Shown: piece by piece, positions 30,275-30,320 of the stretch
How positions within the stretch are numbered: the first letter of the stretch is position 1
Layout of the letters: every line of letters starts with the position of its first letter
Origin: Escherichia coli
Lineage (GTDB): Bacteria > Pseudomonadota > Gammaproteobacteria > Enterobacterales > Enterobacteriaceae
Length of the DNA stretch: 64,000 nt
Strand: one strand, 5' to 3'
NCBI RefSeq assembly: GCF_029227855.1
Contig: NZ_CP074356.1
The notes under the pieces: generated by a model
Database searches by the model: none
The model's input: only the letters and a program-made list of their open reading frames with translations
What the model was told of the DNA's origin: nothing
Made by a program: the position numbers and the translations under genes

Positions 30275-30320
30275 CAGCCCTGACATTGAGCAGCTTTTTC
30301 GCTGCGTAGTGTCAGGGCTG
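30275..30320. repeat. perfect 11-bp inverted repeat CAGCCCTGACA/TGTCAGGGCTG with a 24-nt spacer, 34 bp downstream of the malZ stop
   Basis: Read directly from the sequence; candidate malZ terminator or regulatory hairpin. Confidence 0.5.

Follow-up and report, generated by a model that had tools for sequence, protein, structure and literature searches.

A Probable Terminator-Type Hairpin in a Strain-Variable Islet between acpH and malZ of Escherichia coli

1. Introduction

In some strains of Escherichia coli, an inverted repeat lies just beyond the stop codon of malZ, between this gene and an orphan gene of the same orientation. What the repeat does there, and whether it belongs to malZ at all, are the questions considered here. 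The repeat was noticed in the window, by which we mean the whole stretch of 64,000 nucleotides of E. coli DNA that was analysed (contig NZ_CP074356.1). A first-pass annotation had described it as a perfect 11-bp inverted repeat with a 24-nt loop at 30275-30320 and had offered two explanations, that it was the native malZ terminator or that it was a regulatory operator for an acquired, effector-like gene. The repeat is indeed present at that position, though it is longer than described, with arms of 20 nt. We propose that it is a hairpin of the intrinsic-terminator type, that it was imported with a small islet of variable occurrence, and that malZ transcripts now stop there, short of the orphan gene carried by the islet. 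To this reading, we give an even chance of being right. The features of the region are collected in Table 1.

Table 1. Features of the acpH–malZ region in the window.
Feature	Coordinates	Strand	Remarks
acpH (ACP phosphodiesterase)	28109..28690	+	Converges on the orphan ORF, stop codons 20 nt apart
Strain-variable low-GC islet	28694..30353	.	About 1,660 bp; separates the converging ends of acpH and malZ
Orphan ORF, 485 aa	28711..30168	-	Sole gene of the islet; GGAG precedes the start ATG
T-rich tail 3′ of the hairpin	30257..30274	-	AATTTGTTAAATATTTGT; 5 T in the first 8 nt
Imperfect hairpin, 46 nt	30275..30320	-	Presumed functional on the sense strand of malZ and the orphan gene
Spacer between malZ stop and hairpin	30321..30353	-	33 nt of insert DNA, lacking in K-12
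malZ (maltodextrin glucosidase)	30354..32171	-	605 codons; C-terminus unaltered by the insert

2. The Islet and Its Distribution

The edges of the islet, at about 28694 and 30353, were set by comparing the K-12 junction with the window. The left edge is 3 nt past the acpH stop codon, and the right edge adjoins the stop codon of malZ. The GC fraction in 200-nt windows is 0.29–0.43 across the islet versus about 0.47–0.64 in the flanks. The K-12 junction reads TAA-aacg-TTA. Only 4 bp separate the stop codons of acpH and malZ, so that malZ has neither a 3′ intergenic region nor a hairpin there, and the junction is too small for a terminator. The same 4-bp junction is found in a divergent empty-site E. 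coli (L014), for which DNA identity is 93% in acpH and 97% in malZ.

A 2.2-kb query over the region has matches in 5,424 of the 5,426 complete E. coli genomes, and is covered to at least 80% in only 1,126 of them. The empty-site genomes among the matches listed show 24–25% coverage in two pieces, which are acpH and malZ. A 74-nt query for the hairpin matched one place per genome in 1,126 genomes, and no site elsewhere, in the same set of 5,426. The two genome counts are equal, and the hairpin, as compared by count, appears to be strictly linked to the islet. The repeat is therefore not a conserved part of the malZ 3′ UTR in all strains, being absent from K-12 and present in about a fifth of the complete genomes. 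Of the suggestion that it is the native malZ terminator, the word “native” must be given up, since K-12 and L014 lack the hairpin and only islet genomes appear to have it; “terminator” stands as the best guess for the insert-bearing strains. The repeat had also been taken to mark the probable right edge of the insertion. This is approximately correct. No structured element of the islet comes after the hairpin, which is 33 nt inside the right edge; the junction itself is that much further on, at the malZ stop codon.

The low GC content of the islet, a gene without relatives, the uniform empty site, and a dS lower in the islet than in malZ together favour gain over repeated loss. Between the window and O157, dS is 0.023 for the islet ORF and 0.095 for the adjacent malZ, about fourfold lower in the islet ORF. 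From these sequence comparisons, we infer that the direction of change was acquisition of the islet, not its repeated loss. No donor turned up in a collection of 15 billion proteins. The islet had no match in phage DNA, and its only two matches in plasmid DNA are both to records of 4.9 Mb, which we take to be mislabelled chromosomes. Inspection of the islet ends found neither terminal inverted repeats nor a convincing target-site duplication; a recombinase ORF was not found in the islet, nor was an integrase or transposase found nearby. At the left edge, the sequence GCTCCGGCGTCAC (28699-28711) echoes the last acpH codons, GCACAGGCGTCAC (28664-28676), located 35 nt upstream. This direct repeat of 13 nt is imperfect, with 11 of 13 positions matching, and may reflect microhomology at insertion or chance.

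3. The Orphan Gene

The gene carried by the islet is annotated everywhere as encoding a hypothetical protein, and the cluster names for the product are only “hypothetical” or “uncharacterized”. Searches of Pfam, NCBIfam, and PADLOC with the protein gave nothing above the curated cut-offs, no type III effector family among them, so that the earlier label “effector-like” has no support beyond composition. A phmmer search of 1.84 billion cluster representatives returned only the protein’s own E. coli/Shigella cluster and fragments, and a peptide-pattern scan of 100,044 species-representative genomes found no relative. In a word-indexed search, the best 120 matches were all from Escherichia or Shigella. 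The AlphaFold model of the protein has a mean pLDDT of 40 and is unusable.

The reading frame is open in all six of the alleles compared, with pairwise dN/dS values from 0.18 to 1.47; the gene is annotated as frameshifted in the GF4-3 genome. The window and O157 alleles differ by 37 nonsynonymous versus 5 synonymous codon differences, and dN/dS for malZ is 0.04. An in-frame tandem repeat of 12 nt, present in about six or more copies at 29225-29338, encodes a stretch of the protein rich in K, E, A, and I. The protein lengths of 469, 473, 477, 481, 485, 489, and 493 residues match steps of the four-residue repeat, and one further allele encodes 461 residues.

The coding region also contains a perfect 22-bp palindrome, TTTTCATTTCCGGAAATGAAAA, at 30023-30044, about 125–145 nt past the start. 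About 0.015 palindromes of this length are expected by chance in 64 kb. The palindrome is identical in five of the six alleles and has a single mismatch in the sixth. It could be a binding site for a dimeric protein, and as a candidate operator, it is better than the malZ hairpin.

4. Geometry and Fold of the Hairpin

The two arms of the repeat, CAGCCCTGACA (30275-30285) and TGTCAGGGCTG (30310-30320), are exact reverse complements separated by 24 nt. A repeat search extends them to arms of 20 nt with 85% complementarity around a 6-nt centre. The fold consists of a perfect outer stem of 11 bp, seven of which are G-C pairs, an internal loop, an inner stem of 5 bp (GCAGC/GCUGC), and an apical loop with a run of five T residues, corresponding to A5 on the other strand. 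The folding energy of the hairpin alone is −30.0 kcal/mol for the minus-strand RNA and −35.3 kcal/mol for the plus-strand RNA, the latter being the more stable because it gains two G·U pairs. A 117-nt region containing the hairpin has folding z scores of −4.1 (minus strand) and −5.9 (plus strand), and none of 200 dinucleotide shuffles folds as well. Rfam covariance models applied to both strands of 28400-30700 gave no matches at E ≤ 10.

On the minus strand, the hairpin begins 33 nt after the malZ stop codon (30354-30356) and ends 106 nt before the start of the orphan ORF (30168), which corrects slightly the earlier figures of 34 bp and about 110 bp. The two genes are 186 nt apart. As both are encoded on the minus strand, it is the minus-strand RNA that matters here.

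Eight loci in the window have perfect inverted repeats that are 11 bp or longer and have spacers of 3–40 nt, versus 0.86 seed matches expected from dinucleotide shuffles. Apart from the malZ hairpin, long perfect inverted repeats are present at 1511-1571, 3466-3506, 3523-3560, and 5752-5777. The most notable, at 4182-4229, has perfect arms of 19 bp with a 10-nt spacer and is located where, or close to where, two divergent ORFs meet, 3613-4272 (minus strand) and 4272-5183 (plus strand). Neither flank has a T-rich tail, so it may be an operator rather than a terminator.

5. Strand Asymmetry of the Tails

The sequences that follow the stem differ between the two strands. The minus-strand tail is AAUUUGUU (AAUUUGUUAAAUAUUUGU) in the window and AGUUUGUU in most strains, giving A(A/G)UUUGUU. 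Its U-run starts 2 nt past the stem and is interrupted by a G, with U at five of eight positions, a proportion equal to the T-run threshold of the terminator scan. The plus-strand tail, GTGACTAACG (GUGACUAACG), has T at two of eight positions and no U-run. An intrinsic terminator that serves malZ and works in one direction would show such an asymmetry. The window has two more hairpins that we take to be terminators, at 33729-33756 and 60089-60118, with T counts of 6/8 and 5/8, respectively, and the tail of the malZ hairpin is comparable.

6. A Proposal for Termination of malZ Transcripts

The hairpin is where a terminator would be expected, downstream of malZ and on the malZ sense strand, and it has the stable GC-rich stem-loop of intrinsic terminators, with the sense-strand energy given above. 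We suggest that it is a Rho-independent terminator-type stem-loop belonging to the acquired islet, and so outside the E. coli core genome. In the islet-bearing strains, the hairpin would form in the malZ transcript, 33 nt past the end of the coding sequence. With the A(A/G)UUUGUU tract behind it, it would stop most malZ transcription, and it would furnish the malZ mRNA with a protective 3′ stem. The AT-rich orphan gene would thereby be insulated from the MalT-driven malZ promoter. As to its origin, the hairpin probably began as the terminator of a donor gene located upstream of the orphan gene and came along with the orphan’s upstream region.

The consensus terminator scan did not call the hairpin. 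The reason is that the stem is interrupted, on the minus strand by a 4 × 4 internal loop, and the simple consensus calls for a contiguous stem with a loop of 3–8 nt, which this hairpin does not have. The offset and imperfect U-tract, the length of the hairpin, and the greater stability of its plus-strand RNA likewise speak against the proposal.

An exact-arm search of genome contigs returned four matches, all in unrelated MAGs (two Prevotellaceae, one Oscillospiraceae, and one Rhodobacteraceae). In the two that were inspected (L010 and L012), the loops are unlike that of the malZ hairpin, and we treat the four matches as chance or convergent, not as homologues. In a Prevotellaceae MAG, the identical stem is followed by T7, the classic form of a terminator, which indicates that the stem sequence serves as a terminator elsewhere, by convergence.

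7. Haplotype Variation and Alternative Readings

Variation in the hairpin was followed in 12 sequences, chosen to reach from the lowest to the highest identity among the 1,126 matches (91.9–100%), and eight haplotypes were aligned. The outer stem is kept in the haplotypes sampled, with the exception of one stem-breaking G>T change in haplotype 19KM1831, and the sequence TTTGTT of the tail is invariant in all eight. Differences in length are confined to the apical loop (T5–T7, with or without TG), so that the whole hairpin is 46–49 nt and the spacing between the 11-bp arms is 24, 25, 26, or 27 nt, depending on the strain. The A·G mismatch below the inner stem is U·G in one haplotype and U-A in another, changes that add pairing. 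Among the aligned E. coli haplotypes, no pair of compensating substitutions was seen in the outer stem. By a manual count from the alignment, one substitution falls in the 22 outer-stem positions versus about 10% variable sites in the flanks, a difference that is not statistically significant at the low diversity within E. coli.

These data bear first on the possibility that the hairpin is a functionless passenger, a donor terminator or some other palindrome that persists because the islet is young. The dS of the islet ORF, low in comparison with that of malZ (0.023 versus 0.095), would have left little time for decay, the stem is statistically no better conserved than its flanks, and the change in 19KM1831 breaks the stem. 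Against this, the changes at the internal mismatch raise pairing rather than lower it, and a hairpin of −30 kcal/mol that is transcribed in a 3′ UTR ahead of U-rich sequence will form and act on RNA polymerase or RNases whether it is selected or not. We regard the passenger explanation as unlikely.

A second possibility is that the hairpin is a leader or attenuator of the orphan gene. As a leaky or conditional terminator, or as a site for RNase III or RNase E, it would let the orphan gene be expressed, wholly or partly, by read-through from malZ and so be coupled to maltodextrin induction. It is in keeping with this idea that a consensus promoter scan found no convincing sigma-70 promoter overlapping the hairpin, upstream of it, or between it and the orphan start. 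By eye, the only candidate is an extended −10-like element, TGGTATTCT, which lacks a good −35. Moreover, the two genes are on one strand with only the short interval between them, and the imperfect U-tract of the hairpin means that termination may be partial. However, neither an alternative, anti-terminator pairing nor an Rfam cis-regulatory family was found, and AT-rich acquired genes usually have their own promoters. The AT-rich stretch at 30257..30274 could, judging from its composition, be an UP-like region of such a promoter. The leader reading strikes us as rather improbable. Its more elaborate form is less probable again. A leaky or conditional terminator would place a fast-evolving, E. 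coli-restricted orphan under the partial control of the MalT-activated malZ promoter, and the islet would replace the malZ–acpH excludon with an acpH–orphan one.

The third reading is that of an operator, in which a protein would bind the two 11-bp half-sites and control the promoter of the orphan gene. The first-pass annotation had raised this idea, with the promoter region of the acquired gene said to coincide with the repeat; the consensus scan shows no sigma-70-like promoter there. What speaks for an operator is the perfect 11-bp dyad symmetry, placed just upstream of the likely promoter region of the orphan gene. The spacing of the half-sites argues the other way, since its variation from 24 to 27 nt between strains would alter their helical phase; a hairpin tolerates such variation, and a two-half-site operator would suffer from it. 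A centre-to-centre distance of 35–38 bp is, in addition, unusual for a dimer. The spacer, the supposed loop, is itself partly complementary and forms a second stem, which fits a folded strand and not two half-sites. No further copy of the half-site is present in the 64-kb window, allowing at most one mismatch, the region is single-copy across E. coli genomes, and the islet encodes no regulator. Control by an operator at this place is, then, very unlikely.

Lastly, we give almost no credence to a recombination or mobility site (attC-like, IS200/IS605-type subterminal, or Xer-type) that would make the islet a single-gene mobile cassette. In its favour is the place of the hairpin, 33 nt from the edge of an insert that has one gene and fits precisely into a 4-bp intergenic gap. 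On the other side, the far end has no hairpin, terminal inverted repeats are lacking, as is a convincing target-site duplication, and no integrase or transposase is nearby. The islet keeps to a single site in all 1,126 genomes, with no occurrence elsewhere, on true plasmids, or in phages, and the hairpin is upstream of the gene, whereas integron cassettes have theirs downstream.

8. Implications

Most likely, the structure is one more terminator-type hairpin, and an ordinary one. Its modest value is for annotation. What follows malZ, 3′ UTR and probable terminator alike, is not the same in K-12 as in roughly a fifth of E. coli genomes, O157:H7 and the lineage of the window among them, and annotation should be corrected for this. 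The hairpin also marks an accessory islet set into a 4-bp gap between convergent genes.

The orphan gene is more unusual than the hairpin, having no relatives among 1.84 billion protein representatives. Its dN/dS is high, and its coding region contains an in-frame VNTR of 12 nt as well as a conserved perfect palindrome of 22 bp. To know whether the hairpin shields this gene from malZ would be a first step toward understanding when it is expressed. If conditional termination were the case, the locus would be a small worked example of an orphan gene that is wired into a host regulon, and insulated from it, by its own terminator. The presence or absence of the islet would then be a natural polymorphism that switches the K-12 malZ–acpH excludon off.

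9. Comparison with Known Systems

A literature search gave no relevant paper on an acpH–malZ islet; the malZ–acpH pair was named only in a table of the ExcludonFinder paper (PMC12288877). That table (Table 1 of the paper) counts malZ–acpH, with overlapping transcripts, as one of the convergent excludons of K-12 MG1655. The islet-bearing strains have the same two genes, but with 1.66 kb of DNA and a strong hairpin between them. In these strains, it is the orphan gene on which acpH converges; their stop codons are 20 nt apart, and there is no hairpin at that place. Judging from the genomes compared, the transcriptional overlap of malZ and acpH is polymorphic in E. coli, about a fifth of complete genomes carrying the islet instead.

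An unrelated gene occupies the corresponding junction in Salmonella and Citrobacter. In Salmonella enterica (L015, 3083-3965), the acpH–malZ junction contains tsaA, a gene for an AhpC/TSA-family peroxiredoxin, on the plus strand, along with a canonical bidirectional terminator. In Citrobacter koseri (L016/L017), the same peroxiredoxin gene follows acpH; malZ is not adjacent, and genes for DUF3999 and DUF2339 proteins come next. The E. coli islet and the Salmonella junction are alike in having an extra gene at the same site and a terminator hairpin by the 3′ end of malZ. They differ in that the extra gene is on the opposite strand and that the Salmonella hairpin is a short, canonical A-tract/stem/T-tract structure. 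We considered whether the islet is a homologue of the tsaA region of Salmonella and Citrobacter and rejected this, as there is no sequence homology, the hairpin included. Since the extra genes at acpH–malZ in E. coli and in Salmonella and Citrobacter are unrelated, the site is one of recurrent change in gene content.

The hairpin resembles the REP/BIME elements in being an imperfect intergenic palindrome at the 3′ end of a gene, and, like them, it could stabilise the upstream mRNA. Unlike them, it is single-copy, is restricted to islet-bearing genomes, and has no similarity to other E. coli loci. A REP/BIME identity was rejected on the finding of one place per genome in all 1,126 of the matching genomes.

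The closest likeness is to the Rho-independent terminators of enterobacteria. Shared features are a GC-rich stem-loop soon after a stop codon, on the sense strand, tails that are asymmetric between strands, and a loop that varies. The stem is followed by a tract with U at five of the first eight positions, but this tract is offset by 2 nt and itself interrupted. The differences are that the stem is interrupted and that the hairpin is long, at 46–49 nt. As far as can be predicted from its structure, the malZ hairpin would work like a Rho-independent terminator while falling outside the strictest consensus definition of one.
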